51,739 bases of DNA from Escherichia phage vB_EcoS_G29-2. Of the stretch, positions 4,068-50,223 are shown one piece after another. Positions within the stretch are counted from its first letter, which is position 1, and the number at the start of each line of letters is the position of its first letter. Location of the stretch: sequence record NC_049822.1. One strand, 5' to 3'. The position numbers were made by a program, and so were the translations under genes. The notes under the pieces are model-generated. The model saw nothing but the letters and a program-made list of their open reading frames with translations. It was not told where the DNA came from and did not search any database.

Positions 4068-4109
4068 CACTTTTTGCAAAAACAGATTGTTGGGCTTGCG
4101 GTATAGTAA
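4064..4109 (+). promoter_or_regulatory. conserved motif promoter (hairpin GGGCTT/AAGCCC around -10 TATAGT)
   Basis: motif then 18 bp then TATAGT. Confidence 0.55.
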
Positions 4110-4138
4110 GCCCATCGACAACGAAAAAGGAAAACATC

Positions 4139-9423: not shown

Positions 9424-10991
9424 TGCTGATTTGGGAAGACTTAACAGCGGCGCAAAAACGCGCCGTTAAGGAAATGAGCGAATATTCATTCGAAAAGATG
9501 ATCCGCATTTGGTTTCAATTATTGCAAGGTCAGAAATTCTTAGGGAACTGGCATTTCAGCTACCTATGCAGCGAAGTTGAAAAAATCATCAAAGGAGAGT
9601 CACAGAATGTAATTTTCAACATAACGCCAGGCAGTGGTAAAACAGAGATATTCTCGATCCACATGTCACCTTATGCGTCATTGAAAAGTAAGAAGGTGCG
9701 AAATCTTAATCTTTCATTTAGTGATGGCCTTGTCCAGCAGAATAGCAACCGCATTAAAGAGATTATTGGTTCTCCAGAATGGCAGGAGCTATGGCCTGGA
9801 AAGCTGGTAAAGGCAAGCGCAAAGGATCTGATTGTAACCGATGGCGGCAAGGTTAAATTGCAAGTTAACTCGCGATCTATAGGTGGTCAGGTTACTGGTC
9901 TGCGTGGCGGCTACATGGACGATGGATTTACTGGTATGCTGGTTCTTGATGATCCAGACAAACCGGATGACATGCTTTCTAAGGTAAAGCGCGAAGCCGG
10001 ACACATGCGCCTAAAGAACACGGTGCGATCGCGTCGAATGAAGGACACAACGCCCATCGTAATGGTCCAGCAACGGCTACACGTCAATGATTCAACATGG
10101 TTCATGACAAACGGCGGCATGGGCGGCATCCAGTTTAAGGTGGTTAGTATTCCGGCGCTCGTTACTAAGGAATATCGCGAAACGCTTCCTGATTGGTTAA
10201 AGCCTGAGTTTGATCGCGATGTTTTGTCCAGTAAGCCAGTGATGATTGATGGAGTTGCTCATTATTCATTCTGGCCTGCTAAGGAAAGCGCGGAGGAATT
10301 GCTTGCGCTTCGAAATGCTGATCCGTACACGTTCGCTAGTCAGTATCAGCAACAGCCTGTTGCGCTTGGCGGTAACGTGTTTAAAACAGAGTGGTTTCAG
10401 TATTACGGCAGCAGCGAGAAATGCACGCTACCAAAACCGGATCGCTTTGAATATACATTTATCACGGTTGATACCGCACAGAAAACAGGGGAGCTTAACG
10501 ACTACTCCGTGATCTGTTATTGGGGGATGTATAAAGATCGCGTTTACTTCATTGATGGTGTTCGCGGAAAATGGGAAGCACCAGACCTTGAGACTAATTT
10601 TGTTGCGTTCGTTAATCAGTGCTGGAAGCGCAATAAAGAATGCGGAACGTTGCGAAGGATTCATGTTGAAGATAAATCGTCTGGCACTGGTTTGATTCAG
10701 AGTGCAGCGAAAAAAATAATGATCAAGATCAATCCCGTTCAGCGCGATAAAGACAAGGTTACTCGTGCAATGGACGCAGCGCCAGTAATGCGCGCCGGAC
10801 GCGTAGCACTTCCAGAATCGCATCCTATGCTGGCTGAGATACTCGCTGAAGTTGCGGCGTTTACATTCGATGATTCGCATCCTCATGATGATATTGTTGA
10901 TAACATCATTGATGCGGTTAACATTGAAATGAACATGGCAGATGATCCTGTAGGAAGAATGAAAAAATTGGCAGGTTTGCGGAACAAATAG
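9423..10991 (+). CDS. terminase large subunit
   Basis: 522 aa; ATPase P-loop-like TPGSGKT and acidic nuclease-type C-terminus; position between TerS and portal. Confidence 0.85.
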   Translation: MLIWEDLTAAQKRAVKEMSEYSFEKMIRIWFQLLQGQKFLGNWHFSYLCSEVEKIIKGESQNVIFNITPGSGKTEIFSIHMSPYASLKSKKVRNLNLSFSDGLVQQNSNRIKEIIGSPEWQELWPGKLVKASAKDLIVTDGGKVKLQVNSRSIGGQVTGLRGGYMDDGFTGMLVLDDPDKPDDMLSKVKREAGHMRLKNTVRSRRMKDTTPIVMVQQRLHVNDSTWFMTNGGMGGIQFKVVSIPALVTKEYRETLPDWLKPEFDRDVLSSKPVMIDGVAHYSFWPAKESAEELLALRNADPYTFASQYQQQPVALGGNVFKTEWFQYYGSSEKCTLPKPDRFEYTFITVDTAQKTGELNDYSVICYWGMYKDRVYFIDGVRGKWEAPDLETNFVAFVNQCWKRNKECGTLRRIHVEDKSSGTGLIQSAAKKIMIKINPVQRDKDKVTRAMDAAPVMRAGRVALPESHPMLAEILAEVAAFTFDDSHPHDDIVDNIIDAVNIEMNMADDPVGRMKKLAGLRNK

Positions 10992-11018
10992 CACGAATCG
11001 ATAAACCAATATATAATC

Positions 11019-11048
11019 AAAGGCTGGTAAATCCAGCCTTTTTTTATT
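11019..11048 (+). terminator. rho-independent terminator between TerL and portal
   Basis: AAAGGCTGG-TAAAT-CCAGCCTTTTTTTATT. Confidence 0.7.
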
Positions 11049-11060
11049 GGAGGAAAGATA

Positions 11061-14791: not shown

Positions 14792-15226
14792 ATGAGTGAT
14801 TATTCAGTCATTGTTGGCGCTGAGTCGCCAGGATGCATGGTTGATTCTTCAATAATGGTGATTAATGGTTCTTTTGTATGTGGAGACGAGTTTATTTCAC
14901 CAGGTAAGATTGTAAGGTTATCATATATATCAAGCGGATATAAAATAGTCAGTGTTAATGGTGATCTAGTTATTGGCGTGGCAGTAAGACCGCCGGACTC
15001 GTGCATATATGAGGAGGGTGATCCCGTTAATGTGGTTAGTAGAGGTAGTGTGTGGTGCTTAACTTCTGAGAGCGAAGCGCCAGAATATGGAGATAAAGTA
15101 TTTGTAACGCAAGATGGAGATGCGGCATACAGTGAAGGCGACTTGCTGAGCGGTTGGATCTTTACTGGCGAACATGTAAAGGTTGATCATGATTCATATA
15201 TTGTCGGGGTAAGCATTAGCGCATAA
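14792..15226 (+). CDS. head-associated hypothetical protein
   Basis: 144-aa ORF between head genes. Confidence 0.45.
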   Translation: MSDYSVIVGAESPGCMVDSSIMVINGSFVCGDEFISPGKIVRLSYISSGYKIVSVNGDLVIGVAVRPPDSCIYEEGDPVNVVSRGSVWCLTSESEAPEYGDKVFVTQDGDAAYSEGDLLSGWIFTGEHVKVDHDSYIVGVSISA

Positions 15227-15244
15227 CACAAAATTATGTTGCAC

Positions 15245-15266
15245 GTTTAACAAAAAATGCTATCAT
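15245..15266 (-). promoter_or_regulatory. motif copy in inverted orientation between head genes (function unclear)
   Basis: TTAACAAAAAATGCTAT on + strand; lacks the usual 19-bp spacing to a -10. Confidence 0.3.
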
Positions 15267-15309
15267 TGTGGCGTTACATACTAACAGCCTTTATATATGG
15301 AGGAAGAAA

Positions 15310-16284
15310 ATGGAAAAAGAAAAATTTGATCAGCTAGATGCGGATATTGTTTCTAGCTATCTGGCTACTCGCGGCGTTAAGGGTGATGCTTCTGATATGG
15401 GTATCTGGACGGCGCAAGAGCTTCACAAGATCCGCTCAACTGCTTACGAGAAAGAATATCCGGCAGGTTCAGCGCTTCGTGTATTCCCTGTAACTAATGA
15501 GCTTTCTGATACTGATAAGACTTTTGAATATCAGATGTTTGACAAAGTTGGTTACGCAAAAATTATCGCTGATTACACCGACGACCTGCCGACCGTTGAC
15601 GCGCTGATGTCCAGCGAATTTGGTAAAGTGTTCCGCTTGGGTAACGCGTTCTTGATCTCCATTGACGAAATCAAGGATGGTCAGCGCACTGGTAAGAGCC
15701 TTTCCACTCGCAAGGCAAACGCAGCGCAAAACGCTCATGATCAGGAAGTTAACCGCCTGGTGTTTAAGGGTTCAAAGCCGCATAAGATTCTTTCGGTGTT
15801 TGAGCATCCTAACCTGACAAAGATCGTGTCTTCTGGCTGGTTAAGTAATGATGAAAACACTAAGTTCCCGCAGGCAGCATCTGATGAACTGGAAAAGGCT
15901 ATTGAAACCATTCAGACCATCACCAATGGTCAGCACCGCGCAACCAATATCCTGATTCCGCCGTCTATGCGCAAGGTTCTTTCCGTTCGAATGGAAAACA
16001 CCACTGAAAGTTATCTGGAATACTTCCAGAAACAAAACAGCGGAATCACCATCGACTCAATCGCAGAGCTTGAGGATATTGATGGCACTGGAACTAAAGG
16101 TTGCCTGGTATATGAGAAAGACCCAATGAATATGTCGATCGAAATTCCAGAAGCATTTAACATGCTTCCTGCGCAACCAAAAGATCTGCATTTCAAAGTT
16201 CCGTGCACTTCAAAATGTACTGGCCTGACGATTTACCGTCCGTTTACGCTAGTGCTTATTACTGGCTTGAAAAAATCAAGTTAA
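15310..16284 (+). CDS. major capsid protein
   Basis: 324 aa from RBS-supported ATG (GGAGGAAG); strong terminator after; position. Confidence 0.7.
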   Translation: MEKEKFDQLDADIVSSYLATRGVKGDASDMGIWTAQELHKIRSTAYEKEYPAGSALRVFPVTNELSDTDKTFEYQMFDKVGYAKIIADYTDDLPTVDALMSSEFGKVFRLGNAFLISIDEIKDGQRTGKSLSTRKANAAQNAHDQEVNRLVFKGSKPHKILSVFEHPNLTKIVSSGWLSNDENTKFPQAASDELEKAIETIQTITNGQHRATNILIPPSMRKVLSVRMENTTESYLEYFQKQNSGITIDSIAELEDIDGTGTKGCLVYEKDPMNMSIEIPEAFNMLPAQPKDLHFKVPCTSKCTGLTIYRPFTLVLITGLKKSS

Positions 16285-16295
16285 TCGTATAACAT

Positions 16296-16328
16296 TGGGG
16301 AATCCTTAACTGGATTCCCTTTTTTATT
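16296..16328 (+). terminator. rho-independent terminator after major capsid gene
   Basis: GGGGAATCC-TTAACT-GGATTCCC + TTTTTTATT. Confidence 0.75.
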
Positions 16329-18937: not shown

Positions 18938-18942
18938 TCACA

Positions 18943-18968
18943 AGGGGCGTTGCGCCCCTTTTTTTGTT
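18943..18968 (+). terminator. rho-independent terminator after major tail gene
   Basis: AAGGGGCG-TT-GCGCCCCTT + TTTTTTTG. Confidence 0.75.
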
Positions 18969-19003
18969 ACTGTACAATCATGCTACACGATTCATAATCA
19001 ATT

Positions 19004-19024
19004 CTTTTAACAAAAAGTGCTATC
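19004..19024 (-). promoter_or_regulatory. motif copy in inverted orientation upstream of chaperone gene (function unclear)
   Basis: CTTTTAACAAAAAGTGCTATC on + strand immediately before RBS of 19037. Confidence 0.3.
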
Positions 19025-19036
19025 AAGGAGAAAGAA

Positions 19037-19354
19037 ATGTCAAAAATGAAATTAACTCTTGGGCCGCTTCCTGACTTTAAATTACCAGTGAAATTTGCAA
19101 TGCCTAACGGAGAAGATCAAACAATTATCTTCACAGTTCGCCACCGCAAAACAAGTGAGATTCACGAGCGATACACGTCAGACACTCCAATGAGCGATGT
19201 TGAAATGATCACCTTCCTTGCTTCCGGTTGGAATCTTGATGATGAATTTAACGAAGAAAATATTAAACAGCTTCTTGATTACTACCCAGCAACAGCAATC
19301 GGATTAACTAGCGCATACATGAAAGCGCTTGCGGGGCAGCGAGTAAAAAACTAA
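19037..19354 (+). CDS. tail assembly chaperone (G-like)
   Basis: acidic 105 aa directly upstream of tape measure; ends at slippery heptamer. Confidence 0.7.
   Translation: MSKMKLTLGPLPDFKLPVKFAMPNGEDQTIIFTVRHRKTSEIHERYTSDTPMSDVEMITFLASGWNLDDEFNEENIKQLLDYYPATAIGLTSAYMKALAGQRVKN
19345..19351 (+). other. candidate -1 programmed ribosomal frameshift site (A AAA AAC)
   Basis: slippery heptamer in the zero frame of 19037-19354 two codons before stop; -1 frame is open into 19357-19665. Confidence 0.55.
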
Positions 19355-38037: not shown

Positions 38038-38511
38038 TTAGCAATTAGTGCTTTCAGGTTTATACAGGAATCCGCCAGGTTCATAATCTGACATTCTTAC
38101 CACTCGCAACATTTCACGCTTATCACATCTCTTTGTGAGCGGTTTGCCATTGGAATCAAATCGCAGATCTGGACGGCAGAATGACGCGCGATAGCCTTGA
38201 CAACCATATTTCTTGTAATCGTTATGCACCTTTTGAGCGCCAGCGGCTGAAATCATACCGCGAACGCGCCACTGATTTACAGTTTGCTGGCTAACGTTAA
38301 GACGCTTTGCCATTGCTGACACGCTGCCGTAATACTCAATAAGAATGTCAAGCCGTGCTTTTAGTCCGGCGCGCACTTCATCTTTTAAAACATAGTATCC
38401 TGTAGGGCGCTTGCGCTTTTTCTTATCTTTACCCCGTCGAGTTCCGTTATTGCCATTAATTGTGCGCTTGTCAATCTTGCCTGTTGATACCGCGATTCGC
38501 TGCTCTTTCAT
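38038..38511 (-). CDS. HTH DNA-binding protein (putative regulator)
   Basis: helix-turn-helix SVSAMAKRLNVSQQTVNQWRVRG; basic K/R-rich N-terminus. Confidence 0.6.
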   Translation of the reverse strand: MKEQRIAVSTGKIDKRTINGNNGTRRGKDKKKRKRPTGYYVLKDEVRAGLKARLDILIEYYGSVSAMAKRLNVSQQTVNQWRVRGMISAAGAQKVHNDYKKYGCQGYRASFCRPDLRFDSNGKPLTKRCDKREMLRVVRMSDYEPGGFLYKPESTNC

Positions 38512-38523
38512 TATTCATTCTCC

Positions 38524-38569
38524 AATAGCATTTTTTGTTAAACGATGATTTAATGATTGTGTATTATAC
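38524..38569 (+). promoter_or_regulatory. conserved motif promoter for helicase operon (no spacer hairpin, -10 TATTAT)
   Basis: CAATAGCATTTTTTGTTAAAC then 19 bp then TATTAT. Confidence 0.5.
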
Positions 38570-40640
38570 ACTCCAAATGGCATTACTCAAAGGTTTTAGA
38601 ATGATTCCAAACATTGAAAAGCAAATATCAGCACTTGGTGAAGCGGTAATTAAATCCATTCAGGAGCGGTTCACTGTTGGCGATATTGTGCCTTACCCTT
38701 ACCAGTGCGTTGCATACGCTGAGATCGCAAAGCGTATGAAAAATTATGAGCATCCATTCTTTGTTAAAGCGTCGGTATCGGCTGGCAAAACATTGATGTT
38801 TGCAATGGTTGCTCACCAGTGCCGGAAAATGGGCTTAAAAATGATGGTTCTTGCTCGCCAAGCTGAGATTGTGGATCAAGATTCTGAAGAGATAACAAAT
38901 CTTGGCGTGCCGAACTCAATCTATTGCGCAGGGCTGAAGACAAAGAGCGCATACTTTCCGATCGTTGTTGGTTCTGAGGGAACTGTAGTTAATGGACTGT
39001 TTAAAGCGCTTGGCGACTATGTTCCGCACGTTATCGGGATTGACGAGTGTCACCAGGTGGATTGGGAAGACCTTGCCGACGCCATAGAGAAAGATGAGTC
39101 ATTTTTACAAATGACGACAAAGAAAGGCGAAAGAGTACCAAATCCAGATTATGACATAGAGAGCGATAACGAGTGCGAAGAGTTCCTGATTGGTGAGGAT
39201 GGCTTGCCAATGGAGGGAACAGGCCGCACACAATACACTGTCATTATCATGGAAATGATGCGACGTTGCAGGAAAGCATATGGCCATGAACTGCGCATAT
39301 TTGGCATGACTGGATCGGAGTTTCGCGGTGTAGTCCCAATACTGGTAGAAGATAAAAAGCAGAAAGGATTTTGGCGTGAACAGGTTACTAATATTGACAC
39401 CAACTACCTGATCAAGTTCGGTTCTGTTGTTCCGACTAATTTTGGCGACGTTGGCGATCTCGGGTATGACCTTTCAGAGTTTGAGGCATCAAGCGAGGAT
39501 GGCGTTGCAGACTTTGACGCTAAAACGCTTCGCAGGATGGAACAAAAAATTCATGAAGAAGCGACCATGACAAAGCGCATCATGGCGAAAGTGCACGAGA
39601 TCTGTAAAAACCGTAACGGTGTACTTGTGACATGTGCAGGCGAAAGGCACTGTAAAGAGGCGGCGGCAGCATTGCCGCCTGGAACGACTTACAGGATCAT
39701 TACTGGTAAGACTGGCGATAACCAGCGCAAGGAGTGGTTGAAAGAAGCATACGAGGGAAAGGTTAAATACATCTTCCAGGTGCAGGCGCTAACTACTGGC
39801 GTTAACGTGCCGTTTTGGGATACGTCTGTTATTCTGCGTAAGATTGGATCTCTTACGTTGCTGATTCAGCTTTTAGGGCGCGGAATGCGACTGCTTAAGA
39901 AATGGCATAAGGAGCAAGGATTCAAGAAAGATGATCATCTCGTCATGGATTTTTCAGGAACGATGGACGAGCTAGGGGAGCTTTATTTTGATCCGATACT
40001 GGAACAGGCGCAGCACCAGAAGCGATTCAGAAATGGTAAAGATCCGAAGCCTTGTCCTGTTTGCGGAACTCTTAACAGCTATTATGCTCGTCGTTGTATG
40101 CACGTAGACGAAAACGGCAACAGATGCGAGTGGTTCTTTAAATTCAGGACATGTGATGATCAGATTGACCCGCGCACTAAAAAGATTATTCATCGCGGTT
40201 GCGGAACGAAGAATGATATTGCGGCCAGGGTATGCAGACATTGCGACATGTCATTGATTGACCCTAACGAGAAGTTAAGCGGAAAGCACTACACAAAAAA
40301 CGACTGGTTTCAGGTGCAATCTTTCTCGGTTGACATGACGAAAAACCAGAAAGGGATAATATTTAATTATGAGCTTTCCGATGGCATAGACACTTTCAGG
40401 GCGAGAGAGATATTTTTCCCTGAATCTGAGAGCCAAATTTGCCGCGCAAAATGGCGAAGCGTTGCTCTTAAGCACATACCAGATCGCCGTGTTGCTGGCA
40501 TGGTGGCGAGCTATCGTAATGCACGTAAAATCATGCAATATGTGAATCACATCATGCCACCATCGCGTGTAACTCACCGCAAGACTAGCAAGGGTGAAGA
40601 TAATTTGTACAAGAAGGACTTTAATTATGGCAATGACTGA
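38535..40640 (+). CDS. ATP-dependent helicase (SF2, DEAH-type) with C-terminal zinc ribbons
   Basis: Walker A SAGKT, DEAH-like IGIDECHQV, C-terminal CPVCG...C...C clusters; start uncertain (38535 TTG, ATG 38578 or 38601). Confidence 0.75.
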   Translation: MLNDDLMIVYYTLQMALLKGFRMIPNIEKQISALGEAVIKSIQERFTVGDIVPYPYQCVAYAEIAKRMKNYEHPFFVKASVSAGKTLMFAMVAHQCRKMGLKMMVLARQAEIVDQDSEEITNLGVPNSIYCAGLKTKSAYFPIVVGSEGTVVNGLFKALGDYVPHVIGIDECHQVDWEDLADAIEKDESFLQMTTKKGERVPNPDYDIESDNECEEFLIGEDGLPMEGTGRTQYTVIIMEMMRRCRKAYGHELRIFGMTGSEFRGVVPILVEDKKQKGFWREQVTNIDTNYLIKFGSVVPTNFGDVGDLGYDLSEFEASSEDGVADFDAKTLRRMEQKIHEEATMTKRIMAKVHEICKNRNGVLVTCAGERHCKEAAAALPPGTTYRIITGKTGDNQRKEWLKEAYEGKVKYIFQVQALTTGVNVPFWDTSVILRKIGSLTLLIQLLGRGMRLLKKWHKEQGFKKDDHLVMDFSGTMDELGELYFDPILEQAQHQKRFRNGKDPKPCPVCGTLNSYYARRCMHVDENGNRCEWFFKFRTCDDQIDPRTKKIIHRGCGTKNDIAARVCRHCDMSLIDPNEKLSGKHYTKNDWFQVQSFSVDMTKNQKGIIFNYELSDGIDTFRAREIFFPESESQICRAKWRSVALKHIPDRRVAGMVASYRNARKIMQYVNHIMPPSRVTHRKTSKGEDNLYKKDFNYGND

Positions 40641-42066: not shown

Positions 42067-42107
42067 CACTTTTTGTTAAAAAGCCCGGCCCTGTGTCGGG
42101 CATAATT
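42062..42107 (+). promoter_or_regulatory. conserved motif promoter (hairpin GCCCG/CGGGC, -10 CATAAT)
   Basis: motif then 19 bp then ATAATT. Confidence 0.55.
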
Positions 42108-42138
42108 ATTTCATCAAAACGAACAAGAGGAAAACAAA

Positions 42139-48097: not shown

Positions 48098-48128
48098 CGT
48101 TTATTTCTCCTTTCGTTTCGGTGAAGTG

Positions 48129-48173
48129 ATTATGCCAGGCTTTTACACCTGGCTTTTAACAAAAAGTGCTATT
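48129..48173 (-). promoter_or_regulatory. conserved motif promoter (hairpin GCCAGG/CCTGGC, -10 CATAAT)
   Basis: minus-strand motif; same hairpin sequence as copy at 1254. Confidence 0.55.
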
Positions 48174-49671: not shown

Positions 49672-49953
49672 CTAATTAATGCCAACAACGTTAAAACTTA
49701 CAGCTTTTGTTGCGCTAAACACATACGCTTCAACAGCCTCACCAAATACACGAATTTTTCCCTGGCCGTACTGCGCATTCATATTGCGCCAAACCGTCCT
49801 GTTAGAACAGAACGCGCTACCAGTCTTGATAAGATTATCCATCTCTTTCCTTAGATCATGATAATCAAGCCAGAATCTATAAGCGCGTTGTTTAATGAGT
49901 TGTGCCTTGATTGTTTCAGTTGAGTTTTTAAAATCGCTGTTTGTGTAGGCCAT
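49672..49953 (-). CDS. hypothetical protein
   Basis: RBS GGAGG; TAATG coupling with upstream gene. Confidence 0.5.
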   Translation of the reverse strand: MAYTNSDFKNSTETIKAQLIKQRAYRFWLDYHDLRKEMDNLIKTGSAFCSNRTVWRNMNAQYGQGKIRVFGEAVEAYVFSATKAVSFNVVGIN

Positions 49954-50147
49954 TACACAACCTCCATAAAAGTATTGAATCCACGCAGTTTGAAAGCATT
50001 GCCATGTTTAACAACGTTCCATGTCAGGCCGGAGTGATACGCAACCATATCCTCAAGATCAATGGTGATGATAGCGCCTTTCTTAAAGATTCCTTTCTCG
50101 TGAGTGGTGTCACGCTGTACAACTTTAACATCAACTTGATTTTCCAT
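49953..50147 (-). CDS. hypothetical protein
   Basis: RBS GAGGA and conserved leader downstream of motif promoter 50178-50223. Confidence 0.5.
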   Translation of the reverse strand: MENQVDVKVVQRDTTHEKGIFKKGAIITIDLEDMVAYHSGLTWNVVKHGNAFKLRGFNTFMEVV

Positions 50148-50177
50148 CTTTAAATCCTCGTTCGTTGTCGATGGATG

Positions 50178-50223
50178 TAATATACCATTCAGGCGCATAC
50201 CGTTTTTAACAAAAAGTGCTATT
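50178..50223 (-). promoter_or_regulatory. conserved motif promoter (-10 ATATTA)
   Basis: motif then 18-19 bp then ATATTA; followed by conserved leader. Confidence 0.5.

Follow-up and report, generated by a model that had tools for sequence, protein, structure and literature searches.

What does a repeated sequence motif do when it lies among the head genes of a phage and points against their transcription? The question is raised by a short intergenic sequence of Escherichia phage vB_EcoS_G29-2 (NC_049822.1), within the 51,739-nt stretch of DNA analysed here, which we call the window. A preliminary description had placed the reverse complement of the motif core between two plus-strand head genes, without the usual 19-bp spacing to a minus-strand -10, and both points are borne out. 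The sequence is an exact 17-mer at 15247-15263, with a cement gene upstream and the gene for the major capsid protein (MCP) downstream, and the minus-strand hexamer at the standard 21-nt offset (the "19 bp", counted past two trailing A's) is TATGCG, which is without the essential final T.

The site is thus real, and one of the three readings offered for it, a regulator site that works in either orientation, is kept below in modified form; the other two, an antisense promoter and a decayed copy, are not. What had been missed is the main feature, a predicted plus-strand promoter for the capsid gene. The range then described (15245-15266) also includes the remainder of its -10 hexamer. We propose that the site is a capsid promoter, P_MCP, with an embedded operator for a motif-binding factor, probably the Cro-like regulator encoded at 38038-38511. 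Judging from the sequence, we put the probability of this reading at about 0.55.

Gene setting and motif family

By its sequence the phage is classed as a T1-like coliphage of the Drexlerviridae, near aaroes and grams. Over about 3 kb around the site, DNA identity to Hanrivervirus-type coliphages (vB_Eco-B1.3, aaroes, grams, egaa) is 96-98%. Several GenBank records (MG065636, MG065670, MG065671 and others) named "Campylobacter phage A16a/A121/A120..." are about 96% identical over the capsid region, and the Campylobacter jejuni host labels on these coliphage-like records look doubtful. The gene order is that of T1 and KP36: terminase, portal, protease, cement proteins, major capsid protein and tail genes, continuing with Cor, recombination genes, primase, regulator and helicase. 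The features of the capsid locus are the following.

14792-15226, plus strand: cement/decoration-type minor capsid gene (Pfam PF23982, 1.4e-25, and PF22758), TAA stop at 15224-15226
15227-15236, plus strand: A-rich stretch CACAAAATTA, upstream of the -35, a conserved A-run in the orthologue alignment
15239-15244, plus strand: putative -35 hexamer TTGCAC of P_MCP, 3/6 consensus, TTG kept
15247-15263, no strand assigned: motif copy TTAACAAAAAATGCTAT, 17-mer, proposed operator, at about -26 to -10 of P_MCP
15258-15266, plus strand: putative extended -10 TGcTATCAT, with TG at -15/-14 and the hexamer at 15261-15266
15270-15289, plus strand: terminator-like hairpin GGCGTTA...TAACAGCC followed by TTT, beginning 3 nt after the -10
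15299-15303, plus strand: MCP ribosome-binding site GGAGG, from the sequence
15310-16284, plus strand: MCP gene, which P_MCP would serve (77 homologous loci, 53-98% identity)
16297-16320, plus strand: intrinsic terminator after the MCP gene, from a terminator scan

The MCP, which is annotated as major head or capsid protein in relatives, starts at the ATG at 15310, with GGAGG upstream; the GTG at 15268 that opens the longest reading frame is not its start.

The motif family extends well beyond this locus. The window holds 16 copies with at most three mismatches, against 0.61 expected, and 21 copies of the core ATAGCAC-N3-TTGNTAA with at most one mismatch, against none in 20 shuffles. The T-tract "core" of the preliminary description was therefore a real motif, but one that overlooked the variants with a GAATT centre, which scoring of the core finds at 2766, 5422, 49554, 10988 and 38038. 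The core is a near-palindrome, TAGCA-N5-TG(C/T)TA, and as such fits a dimeric helix-turn-helix protein, so that the "orientation" of a copy is largely a matter of its flanks.

A standard copy has a TAnAAT-like hexamer 20-22 nt past the 17-mer and, beyond it, a leader resembling CATCGAAACGA and a ribosome-binding site; these motif promoters are without a -35. A -10-like hexamer at 20-22 nt accompanies 18 of the 21 window copies, 16 of the 20 copies in T1 and all 13 in KP36. The standard copies sit in the non-structural regions (1-7 kb and 38-51.7 kb), with one more at 29674. With TATAGT at 20 nt, this last copy forms a standard promoter (region 29389-29690) for a Cor-like lipoprotein ORF of 75 aa on the minus strand, MKKLIAVLIAAATLTGC..., which occupies the position of the Cor superinfection-exclusion gene of T1. 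Although the copy comes after the plus-strand tail block, it is not inverted in our sense, because it drives a minus-strand ORF.

Three further observations concern these standard regions. Many standard promoters carry a leader resembling CATCGA(A/C)AACGA about 7-20 nt past the -10, between it and the ribosome-binding site (for example at 1303-1313 and 50150-50160); T1, KP36 and Vibrio phage Vc1 have a similar leader. Of 48 standard promoters from the window, T1 and KP36, 73% have a GC-rich hairpin that abuts the -10 or holds it in its loop (1272-1310, 2783-2820, 4081-4118, 42080-42115 and 48120-48155 are examples). These hairpins have a mean z-score of -2.7 against shuffles and no U-run after them; their stems differ in sequence, so structure rather than sequence appears to be kept. 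At 49953-50198, on the minus strand, an 81-aa ORF matches Pfam PF25180, "Phage antiviral trigger protein Gp54" (E = 3e-37).

Our literature search found the motif described only in the 2024 reannotation of phage TLS, a member of the same phage family (PMC11447400). That paper reports the same motif as a 21-nt direct repeat, aaATAGCACnnnTTGnTAAAA, in 21 places, with DR1-DR18 listed, oriented with transcription about 76 nt upstream of start codons, and leaves its function open, with a stoperator, an enhancer site or an UP element as suggested roles (PMC11447400). Only three canonical sigma-70 promoters were found in TLS, one of them that of the regulator (PMC11447400). In its Supplementary Table S1, DR7 is on the negative strand at 15044..15024, atatagcattttttgttaaac, directly followed by terminator T35 (PMC11447400). 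DR7 is the orthologue of the copy at 15247 and T35 that of the adjoining hairpin. The paper is silent on the opposite orientation of DR7 and calls no promoter there (PMC11447400). The motif family and this very copy had thus already been listed; the new reading is the placing of DR7 and of the 15247 copy inside a sigma-70 promoter of the capsid gene.

Like DR7, the copy at 15247 points to the minus strand between two plus-strand genes, against local transcription. It is the exact reverse complement of the motif variant at 38525 and 47480, and its own reverse complement, ATAGCATTTTTTGTTAA, matches the core with a single mismatch (C7 to T, giving ATAGCAT) that it shares with those two standard copies. 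As written on the plus strand, it is a near-palindrome, TAACA-N5-TGCTA, having the dyad symmetry of an operator for a dimeric Cro-like protein, with half-sites about 10 bp apart; in motif variants with TTGCTAA the dyad is perfect (TAGCA-N5-TGCTA). The usual flanking aa...AA is missing. None of the host sites considered (Fis, IHF, CRP, ArcA, sigma-54 and others) is known to fit TAGCA-N5-TGCTA, the sigma-54 fit failing on the GG/GC dinucleotides and their spacing.

Were the copy to be read in its own direction, it would be a motif-dependent promoter making RNA antisense to the cement gene at 14792-15226. The core is intact but for the one mismatch, and the copy at 19007, which also opposes its flanking genes and makes the 15247 copy not unique in this respect, has retained a minus-strand -10-like hexamer at 21 nt, so that such promoters may exist in the family. 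At 15247, however, the hexamer at the 21-nt offset is TATGCG, and of 36 distinct orthologues only 2 have, 20-22 nt away, a hexamer with the A2 and T6 that 18 of the 21 window copies and all 13 in KP36 possess. The offset position falls on the upstream stop codon and the A-run, here read in reverse complement, and the leader of the standard promoters is missing. We regard an antisense promoter as very unlikely.

That the copy has decayed, or is hitch-hiking without function, is a still poorer account of it. The mismatch in the core and the missing flanks would fit such a history, but two standard copies, those at 38525 and 47480, have ATAGCAT as well. T1, TLS (as DR7) and dozens of phages with MCP identity down to about 55% share this copy, with place and orientation unchanged. 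Among 29 distinct sequences from the E. coli clade, nothing else in the intergenic region is as well conserved as the motif columns, and we find decay scarcely credible.

A predicted forward promoter for the capsid gene

Read on the plus strand, the same DNA has the elements of a promoter aimed at the MCP gene: TTGCAC (15239-15244), 16 nt, TGc within the end of that spacer, and TATCAT (15261-15266). The 17-mer makes up part of the spacer, the TG of the extended -10 and the first three bases of the -10 itself. TATCAT matches the consensus at 5/6 positions, with A2 and T6 present. TTGCAC with its 16-nt spacer is a weak match at 3/6, and a consensus promoter scan did not list the site; a weak -35 is tolerated by extended -10 promoters. 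The A-rich stretch at 15227-15236, whose counterpart in relatives is CA(C/T)AAAAA or AAAAAAA, is possibly an UP-element-like sequence.

When all of the motif copies are read in reverse in this way, a TTG-type -35 together with a 5/6 -10 appears only at this copy (1 of 21 in the window) and at its orthologue (1 of 20 in T1). From these elements and their spacing we infer promoter activity: the 17-mer is predicted to be the core of a forward sigma-70 promoter for the capsid gene, with a start about 7 nt past the -10, at about 15272-15275. Other plus-strand registers were considered, with TTAACA as the -35 or with TACATA or CATACT as the -10, and rejected, the partner hexamer being missing at 16-18 nt. 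Literature searches on the motif and the phage family brought up neither transcript nor start-site nor binding data on any of the Drexlerviridae.

Directly after the -10 comes the terminator-like hairpin, which in the window is weak or degenerate (RNAfold -5.8 kcal/mol, followed by TTT only). In most relatives it starts 1-3 nt past the -10, has a folding energy of -11 to -15 kcal/mol and is followed by 4-6 T, and compensatory changes are seen at 5 of its 8 pairs across relatives. The predicted P_MCP start falls within its 5' arm. Transcripts reading through from upstream would, in most relatives, stop at the hairpin, while those of P_MCP, starting inside the 5' arm, would escape it. P_MCP transcripts would start at about 15273, drive the MCP gene and end at the terminator at 16297-16320; promoter, gene and terminator would form a self-contained one-gene unit.

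The hairpin can also be fitted into a different picture, in which a protein bound to the motif acts as a stoperator-type roadblock and, with the hairpin, insulates the capsid gene, there being no promoter at the site. The site lies just upstream of the hairpin, the motif is inside a transcribed leader at 19007 and at 38525, and a stoperator-like role for the repeats was suggested as possible by the TLS authors (PMC11447400). Such a roadblock would nevertheless leave unexplained why a TTG-type -35 is conserved at a fixed 16 nt from a complete TATNNT -10; and if every transcript from upstream ended there and no promoter existed, nothing would supply mRNA for the most abundant virion protein. We think the roadblock unlikely.

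Conservation among relatives

To follow the site among relatives, we aligned the sequences upstream of the MCP gene from 77 IMG/VR loci with MCP relatives (98% to 53% identity) and from the T1 and KP36 genomes. For 74 of the 77 loci and for both genomes the region could be identified, and at each of these sites the A-run is followed by a TTG-type -35, then by 16 nt of spacer and a TATNNT hexamer as the -10 (A2, T6). The -35 is TTGCAC, TTGAAC, TTGACG or TTGACC, the last two being 5/6 matches to consensus, and the -10 is TATCAT, TATATT, TATTAT, TATTCT or TATCCT. TG at -15/-14 is kept in every located orthologue except two, L019 and L024.

The orthologue in T1 reads TTGACG-16-TGc-TATTAT. For KP36, the GenBank record (NC_029099, 15358..15385) already has a promoter annotated before the major head gene at the orthologous site, with the position and architecture of P_MCP (TTGACG-16-TATCCT); the annotation was made in silico only, the motif inside the promoter differs from the core at two positions, and the record draws no link to a repeat family.

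The motif embedded in the promoter is conserved in its own right. In the 29 distinct E. coli-clade sequences, the mean information of its columns is 1.86 bits out of a maximum of 2, compared with 1.59 in the -35 and about 1.0 in the flanks, and a motif with at most one core mismatch is present at the orthologous site in most relatives other than the KP36 type. RNA polymerase reads most spacer bases non-specifically, and the motif columns are nonetheless the most conserved, which suggests that the spacer has a second reader. In Webervirus-like loci (L041, L043-L047) the centre of the copy has gone from AAAAA to the GAATT type that is also seen in standard copies, with ATAGCAC...TTGCTAA perfect; the half-sites TAACA and TGCTA thus stay fixed while the centre switches between AAAAA and the GAATT type. 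That the spacer is kept as a palindromic copy of the motif is what leads us to propose an operator there.

The conservation is not without exceptions. Weberviruses of the KP36 type keep the promoter, but their motif, ATATCACGAATCGTTAA, departs from the core at two positions, and L019 and L024, which retain the -35 and the -10, have the motif interrupted by an extra base. The motif has not changed clade-wide: the standard copies of KP36 are unchanged (ATAGCAC...), and only the copy in the capsid promoter has drifted. Because these lineages damage the motif and keep the promoter, the operator, if real, would be dispensable in some of them. By the alignment, the predicted promoter is the deeper feature, and an operator, if real, one that can be lost in some lineages.

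These exceptions also favour the simplest alternative, that the site is a promoter only, its likeness to the motif being without regulatory meaning and its spacer kept for promoter strength or by descent. The promoter does outlive the motif in the KP36 type and in L019 and L024, and 6 of the 17 motif bases (TGCTAT) are explained by promoter function alone, since they supply the TG and the first three bases of the -10. Inheritance rather than selection could likewise explain part of the spacer conservation. Set against this are the eleven spacer bases TTAACAAAAAA, which RNA polymerase does not read base-specifically and which in the 29 sequences vary no more than the -10 and less than the -35. 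Nor would a plain spacer be expected to exchange its centre for the other centre found in standard copies, with perfect half-sites, as in L041 and L043-L047, and an exact match to the core is not expected by chance, having been found in none of the shuffles. We consider a promoter without an operator doubtful, if still deserving of attention.

With regard to the regulator site that the preliminary description suggested, the near-palindrome TAGCA-N5-TGYTA, intact over deep divergence, makes such a site plausible, and we retain it as a putative operator within P_MCP.

Candidate regulator and a two-geometry model

A candidate for the motif-binding protein is encoded close to another motif copy. 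The features needed here and in the comparison of copies are the following.

18950-18978, plus strand: sigma-70-type promoter TTGCGC-17-TACAAT, overlapping the terminator of the major tail gene, upstream of the 19007 motif
19007-19023, pointing against the flanking genes: opposing motif copy within the 5' leader, directly ahead of the ribosome-binding site for the tail chaperone
38038-38511, minus strand: Cro-like helix-turn-helix regulator of 157 aa, with T1 gp23 and KP36 gp55 as homologues, the candidate motif-binding protein
38525-38590, no strand assigned: divergent control region with a motif copy at 38525-38541, same layout in T1 and KP36
38562-38567, plus strand: -10 of the helicase gene, TATTAT, 20 nt downstream of the 38525-38541 motif
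38590-38563, minus strand: regulator-gene promoter TTGAGT-16-TATAAT, reading through the 38525-38541 motif before the ribosome-binding site

The regulator matches the Pfam families YdaS_toxin and P22_Cro, both just under the cut-offs, and its residues 54-91 match Cro proteins in the PDB (5w8y, 3bd1, 1rzs; E = 2e-5). It is 60-73% identical to T1 gp23 and KP36 gp55, and its homologues occur only in Drexlerviridae-like contigs about 50 kb long. When a further 20 non-structural ORFs were scanned against Pfam, no other DNA-binding domain came to light, most of these ORFs being without any match, which leaves the regulator as the only recognisable DNA-binding protein among the 21 scanned. Its gene adjoins a motif copy and, from a predicted promoter, is transcribed through that copy. 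A search for covariation between regulator and motif gave none: even Vibrio phage Vc1, Citrobacter phage HCF1 and a Logan contig, whose regulators are the most distant homologues (46-54% identity), keep the same motif core. On the strength of its position and its domain type, and since a Cro-like helix-turn-helix suits a palindromic site, this protein is probably the motif-binding factor.

Two other copies share the relative orientation of the capsid copy and likewise have a sigma-70 promoter with a -35 associated with them, lying downstream of that of the regulator gene and that of the tail-chaperone gene. In the control region, the -10 elements of the regulator and helicase genes overlap on opposite strands in a shared palindromic -10 region, TATAAT/TATTAT (38562-38568), and the two genes share the copy at 38525, which falls in the leader of the regulator gene and, seen from the putative motif-dependent helicase promoter, at about -42. 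The TLS counterpart has promoter P57 and repeat DR11, and the KP36 record annotates a promoter there as well. As a whole, the layout at 38509-38612 resembles an autoregulated switch.

Downstream of the copy at 19007 is a gene matching Pfam PF08748 (the tail-chaperone gene), and the -10 of the promoter at 18950-18978 varies among relatives only at its third position (TAAAAT, TAGAAT, TACAAT). On the minus strand this copy has TAGCAT at the standard 21 nt, and TAAGAT or TAGAGT across relatives, T1 included; within the region 18942-19048 it may also fire antisense RNA into the tail-gene terminator. A separate irregular case, in the region 10988-11060, is the forward copy ATAGCACGAATCGATAA, whose core has a single mismatch and which lies between the genes for the large terminase and the portal. 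It is without the standard 21-nt -10, has TATAAT only 7 nt downstream and then a terminator-like hairpin, and many relatives have a perfect motif copy at the same relative position.

Considering the conservation of these copies and their geometry, we infer binding by one factor whose sign of regulation would depend on where its site lies. The regulator would be made early, from its own host-type promoter. Bound at about -42, the factor would activate some 18-20 standard early and middle promoters that are without a -35, in a class II-like manner. On P_MCP, bound from -26 to -10, it would cover the TG and the -10 and exclude RNA polymerase, giving repression, and in the leaders of the regulator gene and the tail-chaperone gene it would also repress. 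Capsid expression would in this way be coupled negatively to the early and middle programme. One point speaks against the scheme: a factor-independent sigma-70 promoter would fire before any repressor exists, which is awkward to combine with simple late timing.

The full form of the model, in which the Cro-like protein is a dual regulator in the style of lambda CI, using one palindromic site in two geometries to activate from about -42 and to repress the sigma-70 promoters of the capsid, tail-chaperone and its own gene, is tentative, and we hold it with distinctly less confidence than the reading of the capsid site alone. Lambda CI and CRP provide the known pattern, with activation from sites near -42 at promoters having a weak or absent -35 and repression from sites that overlap the -35 or -10. 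As with CI at OR (PRM/PR) and with dual regulators of the CRP type, one dimeric protein would put one type of site to two uses, and the divergent overlapping promoters at 38525-38590 match a lambda-like layout, the likeness being one of layout. Unlike lambda, the phage is virulent and without a lysogeny module, and it has a single site per promoter rather than cooperative tripartite operators.

Other phage systems offer partial parallels. In T4, a phage activator reads the MotA box (TGCTTtA-like), centred at -30, 11-13 bp from the -10. The middle promoters of T4 resemble the standard copies in having a good -10, no -35 and a phage-specific upstream box, and the MotA box itself is similar to the TTGCTAA of the Drexlerviridae motif; the latter, however, ends 21 nt from the -10, and the capsid copy is inside its promoter, not upstream. 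Stoperators block elongation and keep no fixed distance to a -10. Those of mycobacteriophage L5, which are repressor sites, are like the present motif in being many, short and asymmetric, in lying in short intergenic spaces and in having an orientation tied to transcription, whereas standard copies of the motif are fixed at 20-22 nt from a -10 and the capsid copy overlaps one. The L5 stoperators are cited by the TLS authors (PMC11447400).

A promoter with an operator in it is an ordinary regulatory design. What the proposed reading would add is a promoter, missing until now, for the most abundant virion protein, and an explanation of the one repeat that opposes transcription without a promoter -10 of its own. 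For the repeat family it suggests a two-geometry model, with activation at -42 and repression at -18. The compact and conserved unit of host-polymerase promoter, gene and terminator could aid the engineering of Drexlerviridae phages, which are common in therapy collections. If the dual-regulator reading is true, the capsid site would be the late-gene arm of the T1 temporal switch, relieved perhaps by titration of the regulator as genomes replicate. T1 is one of the classical T phages, and the reading offers a concrete and testable model for the timing of T1-like gene expression.
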